Origin: Ruminococcus albus 7 = DSM 20455
Lineage (GTDB): Bacteria; Bacillota; Clostridia; Oscillospirales; Ruminococcaceae
Direction of reading: 5' to 3'
Length of the DNA stretch: 32,000 nucleotides
Assembly (NCBI RefSeq): GCF_000179635.2
Contig: NC_014825.1
Coordinates: forward strand, 210,001 to 242,000
Both the position numbers and the translations under genes were made by a program. This document shows, in pieces, positions 1-7,178 of the stretch. The notes beneath the pieces were generated by a model. It was not told where the DNA came from and did not search any database. It saw nothing but the letters and a program-made list of their open reading frames with translations. Each line of letters starts with the position of its first letter. Position 1 is the first letter of the stretch.

Positions 1-3000
1 TTGTCGTTCAGATACTGCGTTTTCATCAACATATCCTCCGACTTCTGCGCGGCAGTCGTCTGAACGCCTGCAACATTCGACATTTTTGTTGCGACAAAGC
101 AGTTTTTGTAGTAATGCGCCTCATCGCAGACAAGATAATCGAAACCGAGCTTTTCAAAACACAGGCTGTTATCCTTTTTAGATGACATCAGCTTTTCAAG
201 ATGCTCCTCCAGCTTCTTTTTCTGACGCTCCAGTGCCTTAACGGAAATTCTGTCAGAACTATCCACTTCTTCAAGCGCAGCCATCAGTTCATCAAGCTCG
301 CGCTCCATAAACTGCTGCCGGTACTCGGTGGACATAGGTATTCTTTCAAACTGATTGAACGACATAATGACAGCATCATAGTCGCCCGTGACACACCTTG
401 CAATAAACCGCTGTCGGTTTTCCTTTGTGAAATCCTCGGGTCGGGCAACAAGCAGTTTTGCGTTAGGATACAAACGTATCCATTCGCTCGCCATCTGTAA
501 AGTCAAGTGCTTCGGCACTACCACGCAGGCTTTTGAGATAAGACCAAGCCTTTTCTTTTCCATAGTGATAGCGACCATTTCAAAGCTCTTTCCGGCACCA
601 ACACAGTGAGCCAAAAGCGTATTGCCGCCCAGCTTACCACGCATAATAGCATTGTTCTGATGCGGACGCATCTGTATCGCGGGGTTCTTTCCGGGGTAGG
701 TCTGATGTGAACCATCATACTCTCTGCCCCTGATAGCGTTGAAAAGATTATTGTATCGCTCAACATATTTTTCACGCCTATCCATATTCTCCCAAAGCCA
801 AGTTCTGAACGCTTCCTTGATGACACGAGCCTTGTCCTTTGCAAGCTGTGTTTCCTTCGCATTGATCTCATACCAGACTCGCCCGTCCTCCTCTCGCTTA
901 TCACGGACAACAATATCGCGCTGATTGAGCAAGTTCTCCAGAATATGATAACTGCTCATACGGCTTGTACCGTAAGTCTGCGTTGCCGCTACCGACCTGT
1001 CCTGATACCTGCCGTCGATCTTGTATTCGCCCATTCGGGTTCGGGTGATCGGGTGCGAATAAATATCTCCTTTGAGGACCTCCCGCATAAAACGGTTATA
1101 GTCCTCAACATCGACCCAGTTTGCACCGATCCTTACGGATATTTCCGACGCTTCGAGGTCTTTTGGAACAACCGCTTTCAGGGCTTCTACATTACGCTCA
1201 AAGCTGCTGTCGATATGCTTTGAATATTCCTCGGCAATCCTCAGCTTTTCACGGACGTTACCCGAAAGATACTCGCTTGCGTCTTCGTATCCCGAAAGAG
1301 GATCATTGTCCTTTACCTTTTGAGGATTTCTGTAAATATCCGTTCCAAGTTCCGAAATTATCTCGTCAGGCTCAACGCCTACAAGTTCAGCCATAAATGC
1401 AATATCCACTTTACCCTTTCGGTCAATGGATATTTGCAATGCCTCCTGCGGTGTTTCGCACGATACGATTTCCACCTCCGGCATTATCGTGCGCTTTGAA
1501 AATATCTCCGCTTTCTCCACCGTCTTTTTCTCGGTGTCCACTATTTCAAGAGCCGCCAAAGTATTGTAATCATCATCATGCTGAAATACTCTTTCGTTGG
1601 CACGGTCTGTAATTGCTCCGTATGCTCTCTTGAAGCGGTCATAGGTATAGTTGAGTTCCGCTTGCAGCTTTTTCAGTTCAGCATCATCGCAGCCCCTTGC
1701 CTGTGCATCAATTACCGCCATAGCCTTTTGACGTATCTGGTGCATACCCATCATTCTGTCGAGGGTCTTGCCGGTTTCCTGCACAGCGATCATAATCTCG
1801 TTTTCTCTGAAAAACAGCTTGCCGTTGACAACAGTGTGGGTGTAATTTCTTACGGTCGGGTCGGCGGGAATAATTTCAATATCCTTCTTGCCTTCCTCGA
1901 CGATTTTCACCGTTTCGATCTTACCCTTGATTTTTGATATAGCCGCCTGTAACTGCTCGGACAGGGGCTTGCTATCGTCCGGAATACAAGTAGTGACACG
2001 GCTGTCATCGCCGTACTTACCCTTCATGCGCTCGTCCCAAGCCATAGTTCCGAGCACCATGTCAGGGTTATCGACAAAATACTGATTGCAGGGTATGCCG
2101 TCCGCTGTTTGTCCGAAATGTACCCATGAGGGTATCTCTACCGTCAGCGTTTCACGCTTCTGGAAGAACAGAATATCCGTTGTGGTCTCCGTGCCTGCGT
2201 TCTTTTTGAAAGCATTGTTCGGCAGTCGCACTGCGCCTAAAAGGTCACAGCGTTCTGCAAGATGACGGCGAGCTTTATCGTTTATCTTGTCCATTGTGAA
2301 CTTCGATGTTACGATAGCGACCACGCCGCCGGGTTTTACTTTGTCAATGCTCTTTACGGCAAAATAGTCATGTATCTTCAAGCCGAGTTTGTCATAAGCC
2401 TTGTCAGATACCCTATAATCACCGAACGGGACGTTACCAATAACAACGTCAAATGAATTGTTATTAAATCGGGTCTTTTCAAATCCGGTGATCTGTATTC
2501 TGTCCTCGGGGTTCAGAAGCTGTGCTATTCGACCCGAAATGCTGTCCAGCTCCACACCGTACAGCTTAGAACTATCTCTTATGTCATCGGGCATTTTAGC
2601 AAAGAAATTGCCGACACCCATTGACGGTTCAAGGATATTGCCACCCTCGAAGCCGAGCTGTCTGAGAGCCTGAAATACGCCGTCCGTCACTTCCGGGGGC
2701 GTGTAAAAGCTTGTAAGCGTTGACTCCCTCGCCGCCTTGTATTCATCATCCGAAAGCAGCGACCGCAGCTCCTGCTGTTCCTCCTCCCAGCCCGTCGGTG
2801 CGGCATCGCCCAGGTTGCCACCGATACTGTCCGCAGCAAGATCGGTCACGAACGCTTGTGGAATACCGCCCCAGCCGACGTATCCGGCAAGTATAGACTG
2901 TTCCTCGGGCGTTGCATAGCGGTTCTCGGCTTCTATCTTTTGAAGCGTTTTTATAGCTTCGATATTTGCCTTGAATTTCGATTTTGCGCCACCCTGAACA

Positions 3001-6000
3001 ATATCGCCCTCGTTGAAATGGTAAGTGATAGGTGTGCCGCTTTTAGGAACTACGGGGACAGCGGTTATTCTTTCGGGCGCATTTACAGCCACCTTTTTTG
3101 GCTCTGTTTCTGTCGGTGTTTCTTCTGCTCTTTCTGCCACAGGTGCTTCATCGACCTCGGTGTAGTCAACGTCAATAACCTCAGCGGCTTCATTAGGAAG
3201 ATTTGCGAAAATATCCGCTTTCAGCTGTGCCAGTTCCCGAGGAATATCAAGGCTCACGTCCATATCGACCAGCGCCATGAAGTGGTTGTAGTCCTCCACC
3301 TCGGCAAGTGCGTTGCTTGTTGTAGCCAGTATCTCCGCCGCAGCGGTCAGCAGGCTCATGCTTTCTTCCATCTCCCATACGCCGCCGTCGGTAAGCGTGA
3401 GATCGGGGGCATAAACAGAATACGAAATACCCTCATCGGTCTGGTGCAGTTCTATGAATGATTCATCACGAATATCCATATATACTGCCTGCTCCTGCTC
3501 TGCCGCCTGTCCAGTTATCTCGACCGGGATACCCATATCCTGCGCCCGCTGTATGAGCTTTTCTACGGGCTTCTGCTCAACGGCAGTAACGCCCTCAGCA
3601 ACGATACCCTGTTCACCAAGAAATTGAAGTGCTTCATGATAACGTCTGCGCTCGTATTCCTTTTCAAAGCTATCGTAGCTGTCCGGGTCATAGTCCTGAA
3701 CTATGCGCTTGCAGTCATGAATTTTACTGTCAATATCCTTTTGAGTAATATATTTACCCTCGGATACAAGCCGTGAAATGCGCTCTACGACTTCATTCCA
3801 CTTCATAAGGGTCTTAGCGTCCGGTGTGCCTATTTTTTCGCCGCGCACATAAGCGATACCCTTAGAATCGTGCCATTCATCACCTCCGCGCCTCGAACCG
3901 CCGCCCGTGCCGTACTCATTTTTGAGGAACTTAATCTGCTCGGGCAGGGTGTGAGACTCCTTGAAGTATTTTTGTATCCTGAACTTACCGTCCGAATAGC
4001 CACTGCCAAGTCCAAGCAGAGCGTCTTTCTCTCTTTCGGAAATGAAATAGTGACCCTTGAAAGCAAAATCGGGTTTTGTGACAAACTGCCTGCGCTCTAT
4101 TTGTAAGTCTTTCAGACGATACAAAAGTTCTTTCGGCTTATGGAAGTGGAAACGCAGAATATCCCTGTTTTGCTCATAATCGTTCACAAGCTGTGTAAGC
4201 CCGTCTATGTATGATTGCAGGGTATCCTTGTCCAGCAGTGCGATTTTTATTCTCTCGGTGCTTTCAGGGAAACCGCCCTTGAACATATCTTTCGGAATAA
4301 AATACTCGTAATTGTCGTAATCAATATCCTGATGCAGATACCAAAGCCTGTCGGCTATATCCTTTATCTCCTTTTCGGCTGCACCGTCAATAATATCCTG
4401 CGAACAGAACTCGCCGTTTTCAAGAAGATCATTTATACGCCTTGCGGCTATGAGCCAGGGTATCTTTGAGTTCGGGATACCGTTTTCATCAACATTATCC
4501 CCAAGAGTTATCTTAATTCCGAAATCATCGAACCACGATGATATATGTGCTGTCTTTGAAAAATCGGGCGTATTGTAGATATATCCGCGCCCATCATTAC
4601 CGAACTCCTTACGCAAAAATTCGGAGTTTTCCTCGTCCGTCTTTCCCTTTTGGAACTGTGCCACTATCCTTGAAAGCGATCCACGCTCAGGACTGCCGCA
4701 GCGAAGAACATAATATATCATGTCATTGCTTATAGCCCTGATCGACGTGTCAACATTGAGCAATTTCTTCGGTTCTTTTTCCTGCGACTTCTTCTTGGCA
4801 GTCTTTACTGGCTCCGGCTCCCCGAAGAACGAAAGCTGCTCCGCACCTTCGTTATCATCTCTGTCAAAATCATTGACGGGCGCAGGAGTATCTATATCTT
4901 CATCGGATATTTCTTCCTCTGTTTCGTCCTCAGCTTCAAATTCCTCTGTCAGTTCCTCGAAATCGTCAATATCTTCCTCGGGCTCGGGATATTTCTTTTC
5001 TTCGGTCGGCTCTGCAAAAATCGGCTCATCTATCTCCGATACAGCGGTATTAATCAGCAGCCCGCGCTCAACCATATCAGCATAAAAGCTCTGTACCAGA
5101 TCCCAGCTAAAGCCTGACTCCATAGTGCGGGTGAGAAAACTGCCTTTCCAGATGTGGATACCCTCGTCATACGTCTTGTAGCCATAGCGAGTATCTTCGT
5201 TATCGCCCAGTAACAGTTCCGAGTAGTCGGAATTGAATATCTGCTTAACAAAAGCCACACGCTCATCATGGTCGGTGTTGTTCTCGAAAAATGCCGCTAT
5301 CTGATCTCTTTTTATAGCAAAGAACTGGTCATTCCGCAGTATCCCGAAGATTATATTTTCATCGGTAATGGGCGGCAATTCAGTTGTAATAACAGCTTCG
5401 TTCTTGACGATAACTGTATCGTCCTGCGGTTGATTATCGATTATGCTTTCGACTTCTTCCTCAGTCGGTTCGGATAAATCTACTTCGGGAACTTCCTCCG
5501 GAGGGGTTATATCCTCGACTATCTCTGTCGGGAATACCGGCTCCATATTGGTCGGTATCTCTATGCCCGCATAAGGACTTGTAGCAGGCTCGGCAACCGT
5601 CACTTCGGGCGGCTGCTCTGTTTTGACCTGCTCCTGCTCACGCATACGGAGTGCGTTTTCAATGAGGAGAATTATCTCCGCCTGCTGTCTTTCGGAATAC
5701 TTGTATGCTTCGTGTTTCCTGAAAAACTCTACAATATTTACATCGGTATCAAGGAAATCCGCAAGAAAACGCCCTGCTATTTCATAGCTATCAGGGCGGC
5801 GGTTGAAGTCGCTCTGAAGATAACGCTGGATAAGGGCATCGGCTGTCAGCTTCTCAGCTGATACACTATCTCCTCCATTATCCGGTGTTCTATCGTCAGA
5901 AGTCTTGTTTTCTCCCACGCCTGCATTTCGCTGAATGTCACGGGGCGAGGGTTCTCTTTTCGGTAGAGTGCGTCCAGCTCTTTGAAGCGGCTCTCTGCCA

Positions 6001-6926
6001 GTCTGTCTATCTCCCTCGGAATTATGTTCCACCTGCCCGTTACTATCAGCACCGTCACCTCGGTCGGGTACTCCGTGCGCACCCAATCCTGCCACATTCT
6101 GCCCCACCTGCCTATCGGGGTTTTCAGCAGTTCTATCTCCTGCGGATTGCCGCTGTATGCTACCTCTGCTAACATCTGTCCGGTCGGGCTTTGTCTGTAA
6201 TTCATGCTCTTTTTCTCTCCTTCGTCTTAAAATCTGTATGACCTCGCGCTCTATTTCAAGCAGGCTGTCCTTAGCCGACCTCTGCACCAAATCGCAGAAG
6301 CGGATAACGTCACGGGTGTCCTTGAAATAATCAGCGGCATTGAGGTTTATGTTCCCCGAAAGCGGCATACCGCCGTTCTGCTCGCAGCGATTTGCAATTA
6401 CGAAGCGAACTGCCGACACGACAGAACGCTGATAATCTGCAACAGCTTCCTGCGGCATATCTATCTGCGAAATAGTGTACTGCATTTCCGAGTTATGAGC
6501 CTTGATGTTATCCACGGCAACAGCGGCAAGAGCTTCATGAATATCTCTGCACTCCCTGCCGTATTTTTCCGAGATAACATCAACAAGCTCTCCTGCTACA
6601 TCTTCTGTCAACTGCCAGCCGTTCGGAACAGGCTTGCCGTTAGTCTGTGAGATGTCAAACAGGTGTCTGCACCTATCACCCTCGCCGAATACTGCAATAC
6701 TGTGTGCGCCCCTGTTTACAAATCTGCCGAGCTTGTTCCATGTTTCAAGCTCCGCGACTTTTGTGGCGTTAGGGTCATGGTAGAACACAAGTGCCGCGTC
6801 GGGAAATCCCATCTTATAGAGAGAAGCCGAAAAACGCAGGAAACGAGCTAAAGTCTGCTTGTCCCGTCTTAGCCTTTCGGTCACTTCCGACCAGTTGTAG
6901 CATACGCTTTGATACCGATTATTCAA
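1..6926 (-). CDS. Giant polyvalent conjugative-element protein, 3' end beyond window (about 2308 codons here): ArdC-N-like domain, three paralogous LPD-like modules, N6-adenine DNA methyltransferase, SNF2/DEAD-type helicase (first motifs only)
   Basis: Own translation of the minus frame with codon first bases = 2 mod 3. The frame is open from TAA 6957-6959 down to base 1. TTG 6926-6924 follows GAAAGGAGA by 9 nt. The N-terminus (FPDAALVFYHDPNATKVAELETWNKLGRFVNRGAHSIAVF) resembles the ArdC N-terminal ssDNA-binding domain. MTase motif I ILEPSMGVGNFF (2601-2636) and motif IV GNVPFGD (2418-2438), helicase motif I AHCVGAGKS (585-611) and motif II CDEAHY (111-128) are all in the same frame. The track lists no long minus ORF in this frame, as expected for an ORF with no stop inside the window. 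Confidence 0.85.
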   Translation of the reverse strand, partial: MNNRYQSVCYNWSEVTERLRRDKQTLARFLRFSASLYKMGFPDAALVFYHDPNATKVAELETWNKLGRFVNRGAHSIAVFGEGDRCRHLFDISQTNGKPVPNGWQLTEDVAGELVDVISEKYGRECRDIHEALAAVAVDNIKAHNSEMQYTISQIDMPQEAVADYQRSVVSAVRFVIANRCEQNGGMPLSGNINLNAADYFKDTRDVIRFCDLVQRSAKDSLLEIEREVIQILRRRREKEHELQTKPDRTDVSRGSIQRQSAGDRTAENPDRQVGQNVAGLGAHGVPDRGDGADSNGQVEHNSEGDRQTGREPLQRAGRTLPKREPSPRDIQRNAGVGENKTSDDRTPDNGGDSVSAEKLTADALIQRYLQSDFNRRPDSYEIAGRFLADFLDTDVNIVEFFRKHEAYKYSERQQAEIILLIENALRMREQEQVKTEQPPEVTVAEPATSPYAGIEIPTNMEPVFPTEIVEDITPPEEVPEVDLSEPTEEEVESIIDNQPQDDTVIVKNEAVITTELPPITDENIIFGILRNDQFFAIKRDQIAAFFENNTDHDERVAFVKQIFNSDYSELLLGDNEDTRYGYKTYDEGIHIWKGSFLTRTMESGFSWDLVQSFYADMVERGLLINTAVSEIDEPIFAEPTEEKKYPEPEEDIDDFEELTEEFEAEDETEEEISDEDIDTPAPVNDFDRDDNEGAEQLSFFGEPEPVKTAKKKSQEKEPKKLLNVDTSIRAISNDMIYYVLRCGSPERGSLSRIVAQFQKGKTDEENSEFLRKEFGNDGRGYIYNTPDFSKTAHISSWFDDFGIKITLGDNVDENGIPNSKIPWLIAARRINDLLENGEFCSQDIIDGAAEKEIKDIADRLWYLHQDIDYDNYEYFIPKDMFKGGFPESTERIKIALLDKDTLQSYIDGLTQLVNDYEQNRDILRFHFHKPKELLYRLKDLQIERRQFVTKPDFAFKGHYFISEREKDALLGLGSGYSDGKFRIQKYFKESHTLPEQIKFLKNEYGTGGGSRRGGDEWHDSKGIAYVRGEKIGTPDAKTLMKWNEVVERISRLVSEGKYITQKDIDSKIHDCKRIVQDYDPDSYDSFEKEYERRRYHEALQFLGEQGIVAEGVTAVEQKPVEKLIQRAQDMGIPVEITGQAAEQEQAVYMDIRDESFIELHQTDEGISYSVYAPDLTLTDGGVWEMEESMSLLTAAAEILATTSNALAEVEDYNHFMALVDMDVSLDIPRELAQLKADIFANLPNEAAEVIDVDYTEVDEAPVAERAEETPTETEPKKVAVNAPERITAVPVVPKSGTPITYHFNEGDIVQGGAKSKFKANIEAIKTLQKIEAENRYATPEEQSILAGYVGWGGIPQAFVTDLAADSIGGNLGDAAPTGWEEEQQELRSLLSDDEYKAARESTLTSFYTPPEVTDGVFQALRQLGFEGGNILEPSMGVGNFFAKMPDDIRDSSKLYGVELDSISGRIAQLLNPEDRIQITGFEKTRFNNNSFDVVIGNVPFGDYRVSDKAYDKLGLKIHDYFAVKSIDKVKPGGVVAIVTSKFTMDKINDKARRHLAERCDLLGAVRLPNNAFKKNAGTETTTDILFFQKRETLTVEIPSWVHFGQTADGIPCNQYFVDNPDMVLGTMAWDERMKGKYGDDSRVTTCIPDDSKPLSEQLQAAISKIKGKIETVKIVEEGKKDIEIIPADPTVRNYTHTVVNGKLFFRENEIMIAVQETGKTLDRMMGMHQIRQKAMAVIDAQARGCDDAELKKLQAELNYTYDRFKRAYGAITDRANERVFQHDDDYNTLAALEIVDTEKKTVEKAEIFSKRTIMPEVEIVSCETPQEALQISIDRKGKVDIAFMAELVGVEPDEIISELGTDIYRNPQKVKDNDPLSGYEDASEYLSGNVREKLRIAEEYSKHIDSSFERNVEALKAVVPKDLEASEISVRIGANWVDVEDYNRFMREVLKGDIYSHPITRTRMGEYKIDGRYQDRSVAATQTYGTSRMSSYHILENLLNQRDIVVRDKREEDGRVWYEINAKETQLAKDKARVIKEAFRTWLWENMDRREKYVERYNNLFNAIRGREYDGSHQTYPGKNPAIQMRPHQNNAIMRGKLGGNTLLAHCVGAGKSFEMVAITMEKKRLGLISKACVVVPKHLTLQMASEWIRLYPNAKLLVARPEDFTKENRQRFIARCVTGDYDAVIMSFNQFERIPMSTEYRQQFMERELDELMAALEEVDSSDRISVKALERQKKKLEEHLEKLMSSKKDNSLCFEKLGFDYLVCDEAHYYKNCFVATKMSNVAGVQTTAAQKSEDMLMKTQYLND
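5846..6205 (-). CDS. tnpV: TnpV-family small protein (119 aa), nested out of frame inside the giant ORF
   Basis: Track ORF. GAAGGAGAG ends 9 nt before ATG 6205, and there is an in-frame TAA 24 nt upstream of the ATG. PIGRWGRMWQDWVRTEYP..VTGRW..REIDRLAESRF..HRIMEEIVYQL follows the TnpV pattern (GkyGRM..YLkehrP..sGkL..eID..aEEii..Eliy) as I recall it from Tn4451-type elements. Confidence 0.6.
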   Translation of the reverse strand: MNYRQSPTGQMLAEVAYSGNPQEIELLKTPIGRWGRMWQDWVRTEYPTEVTVLIVTGRWNIIPREIDRLAESRFKELDALYRKENPRPVTFSEMQAWEKTRLLTIEHRIMEEIVYQLRS

Positions 6927-6971
6927 TATTAGTTGTCTCCTTTCTCGCTCCTGCGCTTATATTTCAGTTAA

Positions 6972-7178
6972 TCAGGAATATATCCTGTCAAAATCGGGAA
7001 TGTCGGCGCAAGTATCGCTGTCCTCATCGTACATGACACAGCGCTTGCAGCCGCCCGCCATCTCCCCGTCATTCCAGCCGTCATCGTAGCCACTGTTCTT
7101 GCCAAGCTTATAGGCTATAGTGAGCGCAGCCGTGTTTACTGCTATACAAATAAGTGTTTTTATGACATTCTTTCTCAT
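6972..7178 (-). CDS. Small membrane-anchored protein (68 aa), unknown function
   Basis: Track ORF. GAGGAGG lies 8 nt before the ATG. N-terminal hydrophobic helix IKTLICIAVNTAALTIAY, acidic C-terminus with 3 Cys. Same strand and spacing as the operon. Confidence 0.55.
   Translation of the reverse strand: MRKNVIKTLICIAVNTAALTIAYKLGKNSGYDDGWNDGEMAGGCKRCVMYDEDSDTCADIPDFDRIYS

Follow-up and report, generated by a model that had tools for sequence, protein, structure and literature searches.

Can one stretch of DNA serve two genes on the same strand, one of them nested out of frame inside the other? This question is raised by a 32,000-nucleotide stretch of Ruminococcus albus 7 (NC_014825.1, positions 210,001 to 242,000), here called the window, in which a small gene of the TnpV family, tnpV, lies within a giant open reading frame (ORF) that reads straight through it. 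The window represents a conjugative Gram-positive element with topoisomerase III, a SpaA/thioester adhesin, a VirB4-like ATPase and a VirD4 coupling protein, all encoded on one strand. Coordinates are window positions, and the giant ORF, tnpV and all of their listed parts are on the minus strand (Table 1). We consider it very likely that bases 5846-6205 are genuinely dual-coding and that tnpV is translated from an independent internal start. Both frames are open and conserved, stop codons are avoided in the host frame, the Shine-Dalgarno (SD) sequence and ATG of tnpV are conserved, and the predicted order of one product and disorder of the other are consistent with such an arrangement. Dual coding was the first explanation listed in the initial annotation of this DNA, and it is favoured by the openness of the host frame together with a context-specific depletion of T at the third positions of tnpV codons (T3).

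The nested gene and its host

The initial annotation had called the nested 119-codon ORF TnpV-like, and this identification stands, since it matches the Pfam TnpV family (PF14198) with E=1.7e-7 and 31.6 bits against a gathering cut-off of 27, over profile positions 20-107 of 111. A search of a 5.8-billion-protein set returned 31 homologues with 58-89% identity, nearly all of them 119 amino acids (aa) long and carrying the NCBI name 'TnpV protein', and the TnpV profile found 95 clusters with lengths of 59-226 aa. Thirty-three residues, including several W, P and R, are invariant among the homologues. With the homologue alignment as input, AlphaFold2 (AF2) modelled TnpV as a helical protein, with a predicted local distance difference test (pLDDT) score of 89.1 and a predicted template modelling score of 0.73. 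As a protein of 119 aa, in a family of about 110-140 aa, on a Bacillota mobile element, it has the expected size and context, and we regard tnpV as a real gene here. For the TnpV of Tn4451/Tn4453 and of the C. difficile elements Tn6104-6106, a role in excision was postulated from similarity to lambda Xis (PMC3158075). Since a Foldseek search of the PDB with the TnpV model (pLDDT 89) found no match at E<=0.001, Xis included, this conjecture gains no support.

The host frame that begins at TTG 6926 continues without a stop through tnpV and into the methylase/helicase part, just as had been claimed, and is open for 2308 codons up to window position 1. The order of its domains is ArdC-N-like, linker, 'ADFNRR' domain, LPD16-like, Eco57I-like N6-methylase and ResIII/SNF2-type helicase. 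With many unrelated effector domains in a type IV secretion system (T4SS) setting, the predicted product would fit the description of a large polyvalent protein. The host start codon is TTG in 18 of the 21 homologous loci that could be scored, and a strong SD, GAAAGGAG, is kept upstream of the host start in homologues; nested tnpV always starts with ATG. The closest relatives of the window are L056 (JAEEGL016347103.1), whose ADFNRR domain shows 100% and whose TnpV 97% identity, and the R. albus AR67 locus (L008, NZ_FOKQ01000001.1), which encodes a TnpV 87% identical to that of the window; they make a rumen Ruminococcus-type element its probable source.

The ArdC-N label given to the N-terminus of the giant protein held as a remote homology and not as a direct Pfam match. 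A direct hmmscan of the host N-domain found no ArdC-N (PF08401) at E<=0.1, and fold and sequence searches of the N-terminal 470 aa against the PDB gave nothing significant (ArdC 6i89 had a Foldseek E of 5.4). The homology therefore became visible only by profile-profile comparison: hhalign aligned the N-domain alignment with PF08401-bearing proteins at a probability of 99.3% (E=8e-21, aa 14-111), and PF08401 is carried by a 60%-identical homologue. We therefore call this N-terminus ArdC-N-like, a relationship that is supported only remotely. The mean pairwise identity of the N-domain among homologues is 68%. No peptidase Pfam match corresponding to the HExxH metalloprotease domain of full ArdC was found in the window, and the N-domain alignment ends at aa 111; the remote ArdC matches do have the HExxH consensus.

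When the first 470 aa of the host protein were modelled with AF2, aa 246-358 had a pLDDT of 21-27 and no secondary structure and lay between the folded segments aa 1-245 and aa 359-437. This predicted disordered segment matches the tnpV overlap (host codons 241-361). It is enriched in G, R, S, D and A, lacks W and C, has only about 0.1% F and 0.5% Y, and includes peptides such as QVGQNVAGLGAHGVPDR and GDGADSNGQVEHNSEGDR. The predicted disorder, with the stop avoidance described below, bears out the suggestion in the initial annotation that the host frame across tnpV is a hydrophilic linker that has been held open.

Constraint on the two frames

Homologous loci were gathered in three independent ways, via TnpV (6 contigs and 44 genome loci), via the downstream ADFNRR domain of the host (47 metagenome loci) and via the host N-domain (1 locus). 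Among the 42 genome loci with an intact tnpV (56-89% aa identity) there was not a single host-frame stop across tnpV, and the third frame had 5-18 stops. The host frame was also stop-free across tnpV in 45 of the 47 metagenome loci found via the ADFNRR domain, which were collected without use of tnpV; 42 of the 47 had a full-length nested tnpV in the +1 frame, three had an 87-codon deletion, one was rearranged and one was at a contig end. In the locus found via the N-domain, the host frame was likewise open. Thus every homologue with an intact locus keeps the host frame open, which is the outcome of the homologue alignment that had been proposed as a check.

In simulations where the TnpV aa sequence was fixed and codons were drawn from the usage downstream in the same ORF, the host frame was open in 0.04% of cases for the window and in about 1% or less for each of the 42 loci, usually less than 0.1%. 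Since the loci are related these per-locus probabilities are not independent, a limit softened by the depth of the clades and, as described below, by eleven distant plasmids and by free genes used as controls. Each giant ORF has several other stretches of 70-177 codons that are open in the +1 frame, and ORF length alone is therefore no evidence for coding. In the window such runs lie at 518-955, 3830-4096 and 5054-5296, all on the minus strand, with one of 145 codons in the helicase region. The positions of these other runs are not obviously conserved between loci, and they are probably due to chance. That long open runs are so common in these ORFs might suggest that the nesting itself arose by chance, or from an assembly or sequencing artefact. 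However, the likelihood of this appears negligible given that about 100 independent assemblies, with isolate genomes and complete plasmids among them, share the same architecture, and that the simulated probability is about 0.01 or less per locus.

Free-standing members of the family served as natural controls. In the free tnpV genes that lie 3' of a Rep3 gene (L046-48, 47% identity), the frame equivalent to the host frame has 19-20 stops and T3 is 37-39%. In P0077, the nearest of the free clusters (748 sequences, 51-56% identity), tnpV stands in the context ParA-ParB-...-tnpV-DUF6075-RNase T, and there are 8-9 stops over the homologous core and a T3 of 21-23% at similar GC content. The free tnpV genes of H. 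coagulans and Vescimonas have 7 and 4 stops, respectively. The stop counts and T3 of the free genes agree with the codon usage of their neighbouring genes.

The nested genes depart from this pattern in a specific way. Of the 119 tnpV codons in the window, 38 begin with AA, AG or GA and only seven end in T, counts given in the initial annotation that were reproduced exactly on recounting. A T at the third position before one of these 38 codons would create a host-frame stop. In 32 pooled loci at least 5% apart in nucleotides, with the expectation taken from synonymous usage, T3 occurred in 0 of 1122 such contexts against 254 expected. Where a single mutation would give the next codon an AA, AG or GA beginning, T3 was found in 9.1% of codons (22.3% expected), and in safe contexts in 25.2% (30.7% expected). 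Per locus, T3 was 4-16% within tnpV against 21-42% downstream in the same ORF. The depletion is conserved among the homologues, and its grading by the context of the next codon would not be expected of a general codon bias.

At the aa level the two frames behave differently. Over the same alignment columns, pairwise identity was 0.66 for the tnpV frame, 0.44 for the host frame and 0.46 for the third frame, which is untranslated. Nucleotide diversity was lowest at positions 1 and 2 of tnpV codons. No selection on the aa sequence of the host-frame linker was detectable, its identity being the same as that of the third frame. Since the linker is no more conserved than the third frame, the host frame is constrained to stay open, and not to any particular sequence. 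Each member of the pair thus shows signs of selection of its own, tnpV for its aa sequence and the host for the absence of stops. These figures also bear on the view that the nested frame is an untranslated relic and the giant protein the sole product. Such a view could draw on the loci in which tnpV has a nonsense mutation or a deletion and the host frame is intact, but it is extremely unlikely in the face of the higher identity of the TnpV frame, its 33 invariant residues, its confident AF2 fold, the low diversity at codon positions 1 and 2, and an SD and ATG that are conserved across phylum-level distances.

Initiation, the frame junction and natural variants

The initial annotation had described tnpV as an independent cistron with its own SD and an in-frame TAA upstream. 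Both are present, as AAGGAG at 6222-6217 and a tnpV-frame TAA 24 nt 5' of the ATG, and comparison of loci supports the claim. A purine-rich GGAG-type SD at a distance of 8-12 nt and the ATG are kept in 32 of 32 non-redundant rumen/gut loci, and a GAAAGGGAG-type SD with an ATG was found in eight sampled distant plasmids. The T of the tnpV ATG is a third position in the host frame and would be free to be C, yet it is conserved. The upstream tnpV-frame stop ranges from -6 to -144 nt across loci. Since the SD and ATG are conserved while the upstream stop and the A-run near the junction vary, the data fit independent internal initiation of tnpV and not a frameshift.

Programmed +1 frameshifting, by which ribosomes from the ArdC-N part would shift to the tnpV frame, with an ArdC-N-TnpV fusion as product instead of or besides free TnpV, deserves consideration given that the frames are +1 apart, that an SD-like element precedes the junction as in prfB, and that the window has an A5 run at 6210-6214, the site where a +1 slip had been suggested. 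However, no slippery or hungry-codon motif at the junction was found to be conserved across loci, neither the A5 run nor its surrounding nucleotides are conserved, and the putative shift site has neither a stop nor a hungry codon. With the upstream stop at only -6 in one locus (L020), an ATG conserved where host coding permits C at its T, and free-standing family members that are separate small proteins, we regard frameshifting as very improbable.

The locus could also be read as three cistrons (ArdC-N, tnpV and methylase/helicase), with the open host frame being an untranslated by-product of tnpV codon bias. This is how gene callers often divide it. The stored gene calls of six loci (L001-L006) list tnpV, omit the spanning giant ORF or begin it after tnpV, and leave the ArdC-N region uncalled; in two of them (L003 and L005) it was the annotation pipeline PGAP that called tnpV and started the giant gene after it. 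RefSeq plasmid records, on the other hand, annotate the giant through-ORF. Five host-frame GTG/TTG codons lie inside the overlap in the window, and the first host-frame start codon 3' of the tnpV stop is ATG 5645, 66 codons on, exactly as had been counted before. In the homologue alignment, the ADFNRR domain has no conserved start codon 3' of the tnpV stop, and the idea that the methylase/helicase part has its own start was rejected for the same reason. Codon bias would also not explain why T3 depletion is complete only where a host stop would arise and near expectation in safe contexts, or why free tnpV genes at similar GC have 4-20 stops. Two loci do have a host-frame stop before tnpV, as three cistrons would require, but these stops are independent single-base changes with near relatives intact. 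Taken together, this makes three separate cistrons very improbable.

Some observations weigh against dual coding and must be set beside the evidence above. In three loci of metagenome-assembled genomes (MAGs; L026, L013 and L023), tnpV carries a nonsense mutation and the host frame is intact. In three human-gut metagenome contigs (L085, L087 and L088), an in-frame 87-codon deletion has removed most of tnpV; the giant ORF stays open across the junction (...IQIKSDR/VQRDTD...), resulting in a natural variant with a short linker and no TnpV. Conversely, two loci (L054 and L053) have a host-frame nonsense codon just 5' of the tnpV ATG, which cuts ArdC-N from the rest; the shortened proteins belong to clusters that number 48 and 27 sequences. 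Furthermore, the T3 depletion in contexts one mutation from a stop exceeds what simple stop avoidance fully explains; fluctuation of the following codon over time, robustness to stop mutation or a tendency of the linker to avoid Y, C and W are possible reasons. Finally, both products are predicted ones. Since the variants break one partner and keep the other, they show that some copies can do without the fusion or without TnpV, and that either partner could be lost, at least transiently.

Several single loci showed other changes. In one (L049), an indel frameshift hits both frames, and in L054 an ATG stands directly after the host-frame stop. One called protein (P0043) begins in the host frame and ends as the C-terminus of TnpV, pointing to a 1-nt indel in that contig, and another (P0033) has the N-domain joined directly to sequence past the ADFNRR domain and represents a deletion variant without tnpV. 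At L019:603-887 the nested tnpV is present and the ADFNRR domain is gone, the linker passing straight into the next domain (NNxIVETSELPP...). The ADFNRR domain is therefore dispensable.

Despite these variants, we favour dual coding with internal initiation and propose the following model. Ribosomes starting at the weak TTG 6926 would make one giant polyvalent protein, in which a linker of about 115 residues joins the ArdC-N-like domain to the ADFNRR domain, methylase and helicase. This linker would be the -1 read of tnpV and need only be stop-free and flexible. Other ribosomes would start at the internal SD and ATG 6205 and make the folded 13-kDa TnpV. Purifying selection would act on the aa sequence of TnpV and, in the host frame, only against stops, and this stop avoidance would have led to the loss of T from tnpV third positions before AA, AG or GA codons. 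The arrangement would be old and common to the ArdC-N/SNF2 giant genes of Bacillota plasmids and integrative and conjugative elements (ICEs). We infer from it that both products are translated, at some ratio to one another, and that TnpV and the giant protein are functional partners; a weak TTG start may well suit a scarce giant protein and a more abundant TnpV made from one mRNA.

Two features just 5' of the giant gene may be added. A 68-aa ORF with a Cys-rich ending (...CKRCVMYDEDSDTCADIPDFDRIYS) lies at 6972-7178 on the minus strand. The slot between topB or the relaxase gene and the giant gene varies among loci and can hold ParE/Phd, YoeB/YefM or MazF toxin-antitoxin pairs or a GIY-YIG nuclease gene.

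Table 1. Features of the giant host ORF and nested tnpV in the window, with variant positions in homologous loci (numbered within the named locus).
Feature	Position	Strand	Remarks
Giant host ORF	1..6926	-	TTG start 6926-6924; exits the window at position 1, >2308 codons
SD-like AAAGGAG of host ORF	6937..6943	-	10 nt 5' of TTG start
Host N-terminal folded domain, aa 1-245	6192..6926	-	AF2 pLDDT mostly 70-92
ArdC-N-like region (ssDNA-binding type), host aa 14-111	6594-6887	-	hhalign
SD-like GAAGGAGAG for tnpV	6215..6223	-	Within host codons R-R-E; 9-11 nt 5' of ATG
tnpV, 119 codons + TGA stop	5846..6205	-	+1 frame relative to host ORF; Pfam PF14198
Host-frame linker, aa 246-358	5853..6191	-	Same DNA as tnpV; stop-free; predicted disordered
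Host 'ADFNRRxDSYE' helical domain, aa 359-437	5616..5852	-	Alignment; AF2 pLDDT 66-86; starts directly after tnpV stop
LPD16-like domain	3294-3500	-	Pfam 24.5 bits, just under the cut-off of 27
Eco57I-like N6-methylase	2229-2489	-	Pfam, exceeds curated cut-off
ResIII/SNF2-type helicase	105-677	-	Pfam, exceeds cut-off
tnpV nonsense variants	L026:4121-4123 (W41 to stop); L013 codon 108; L023 codon 95		Host frame intact
Host-frame nonsense variants	L054:5667-5669 (GAA to TAA); L053:936-938 (CGA to TGA)		Independent single-base changes, near relatives intact
Variable-slot contents	L002:4617-5206; L005:1921-2513; L003:4478-5209; L118:750-1258; L114:1936-2274

Distribution, origin and significance

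The arrangement extends well beyond the rumen and gut. A tblastn search of the plasmid database PLSDB with the host N-terminus matched 208-228 plasmids at 20-35% identity, mostly at the N-terminus of proteins that are annotated as 'SNF2-related' and are about 2000-2400 aa long. The window's own TnpV had no tblastn match in PLSDB. Since its branch is too divergent, the plasmid cases could be reached only via the N-domain, followed by a search for a +1 ORF. In C. botulinum pCDC3875 and L. seeligeri p60, a +1 ORF of 118 and 124 codons, respectively, directly follows the ArdC-N-like domain and scores 91 and 62 bits against Pfam TnpV; these two ORFs are the ones that were scored against Pfam among eleven plasmids with a nested ORF. 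The other nine are from C. perfringens, E. faecalis (two types), E. hirae, Virgibacillus, B. cereus (pBFI_3), B. thuringiensis (pMC183), L. monocytogenes (pLM5578) and L. innocua (pLI42). In all eleven, the TnpV-family ORF is in the +1 frame and begins at host aa 172-247, and there is no host-frame stop where 7.8-14.9 would be expected, an open frame having arisen in 0 of 5000 simulations. T3 is 5-18% against 31-46%, although the GC content of the nine is only 31-42%.

By tblastn, such ORFs were found beneath coding sequences (CDS) annotated as ArdC-like, SNF2, helicase or methylase in 95 Listeria and 26 E. faecalis records, and likewise in most of the 26 records that the C. botulinum query retrieved. 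The nested ORF was absent from a Lacticaseibacillus ArdC-N/DUF3991 protein and from a stand-alone Thermoanaerobacterium ArdC-like gene. No separate tnpV CDS was present among the PLSDB rows listed, from a gene table that is incomplete. The arrangement thus appears to be conserved in plasmids and integrative elements throughout the Bacillota, and to be under-annotated there. The annotation gap would concern about 95 Listeria plasmids and dozens of Enterococcus, Clostridium and Bacillus plasmids, and several MAGs lose the ArdC-N domain through it.

Since distant plasmids already have the ArdC-N-SNF2 fusion with tnpV nested at the same place, the arrangement is ancient. The same observation weakens the earlier suggestion of a three-gene ancestor fused by stop loss, and a recent fusion of this kind is disfavoured. 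The rumen/gut nested TnpVs form one clade, and the TnpV of the window is a divergent branch with about 20% identity to the plasmid and ICE types. Family-wide, in a weak, unbootstrapped neighbour-joining tree of these short proteins, free TnpVs are interspersed among nested ones: the free TnpV of H. coagulans pMSR0 groups with nested Virgibacillus (48% identity), that of a Vescimonas ICE with nested C. botulinum and C. perfringens (37% to C. botulinum), and those of P0077 and L046 with the rumen clade (51% and about 46%). This grouping requires at least three changes between the nested and the free state. Repeated escape of an SD-ATG-tnpV cassette would seem easier than repeated capture at the same codon and in the same frame. 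In a test for relics of a nested past, the stops and T3 of the free genes were as their neighbours predict, which does not separate escape from capture. It is conceivable, if somewhat doubtful, that the nested state is ancestral for the whole TnpV family, TnpV having originated in the +1 frame of the linker that follows ArdC-N or having at least been housed there since an early stage of Bacillota plasmid evolution, and the free genes of the Tn4451 type, Vescimonas, pMSR0 and P0077 being repeated escapes.

The closest known analogue appears to be mobB inside mobA/repB of RSF1010, where the overlapped part of MobA sits between the relaxase and primase domains. As with TnpV, a gene for an accessory protein lies wholly inside the gene of a multidomain DNA-transfer protein. 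In RSF1010/R1162, mobB is on the same strand as mobA/repB but in another frame, and both products are translated (PMC2200642). The two cases differ in that the proteins are unrelated and the mobB host is a proteobacterial IncQ plasmid, and in that the TnpV family also has free genes, its nesting is conserved over much deeper divergence and the nested TnpV is a predicted protein. Other same-strand, out-of-frame embedded genes with a ribosome-binding site of their own are comS in srfA of Bacillus subtilis, Rz1 in Rz of phage lambda, and B in A and E in D of phiX174. Those embedded genes are short (46-120 codons) and restricted to their lineages, and they are believed to have originated de novo within a structured part of the host. 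Here, in contrast, it is the embedded frame that is folded and constrained and the host frame that is disordered and unconstrained. The free TnpVs of Tn4451/Tn4453 and Tn6104-6106 belong to the same PF14198 family of small proteins on Bacillota mobile elements but are encoded by separate cistrons. The giant protein shares with the ArdC-N-led polyvalent proteins of Iyer et al. (2017; PMC5512222) an N-terminal ArdC-N, a methylase, an SNF2-type helicase and a T4SS context, but lacks their direct Pfam ArdC-N match; that survey makes no mention of an overlapping gene or of the linker (PMC5512222). No report of TnpV nesting was found in the full-text literature mentioning TnpV, which is mostly from outside subscription journals. 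The locus represents a well-supported new and widespread case of an out-of-frame gene nested in the interdomain linker of a conjugation-associated multidomain protein.

This provides a clear comparative case of long (110-140 codon) same-strand dual coding in bacterial mobile elements, across Bacillota classes. With a simple codon-level signature and free genes as natural controls, it is a good model for how overlaps are maintained, and the genetics would be clean. A CAT-to-CAC change would abolish the tnpV start and be silent in the host, and a third-position T before an AA, AG or GA codon would be silent in tnpV and a nonsense mutation in the host. For the orphan TnpV family, previously tied to excision by conjecture only, the nesting is a first strong functional association, physically linking TnpV to an ArdC-N/methylase/helicase protein that is thought to enter the recipient with the DNA. 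If the nested state were indeed ancestral, it would follow that TnpV is a partner devoted to the ArdC-N polyvalent protein, perhaps, by analogy with MobB, an adaptor or chaperone for the T4SS-dependent transfer of that protein. Internal initiation on their shared mRNA would then determine how much TnpV is made for each giant protein.

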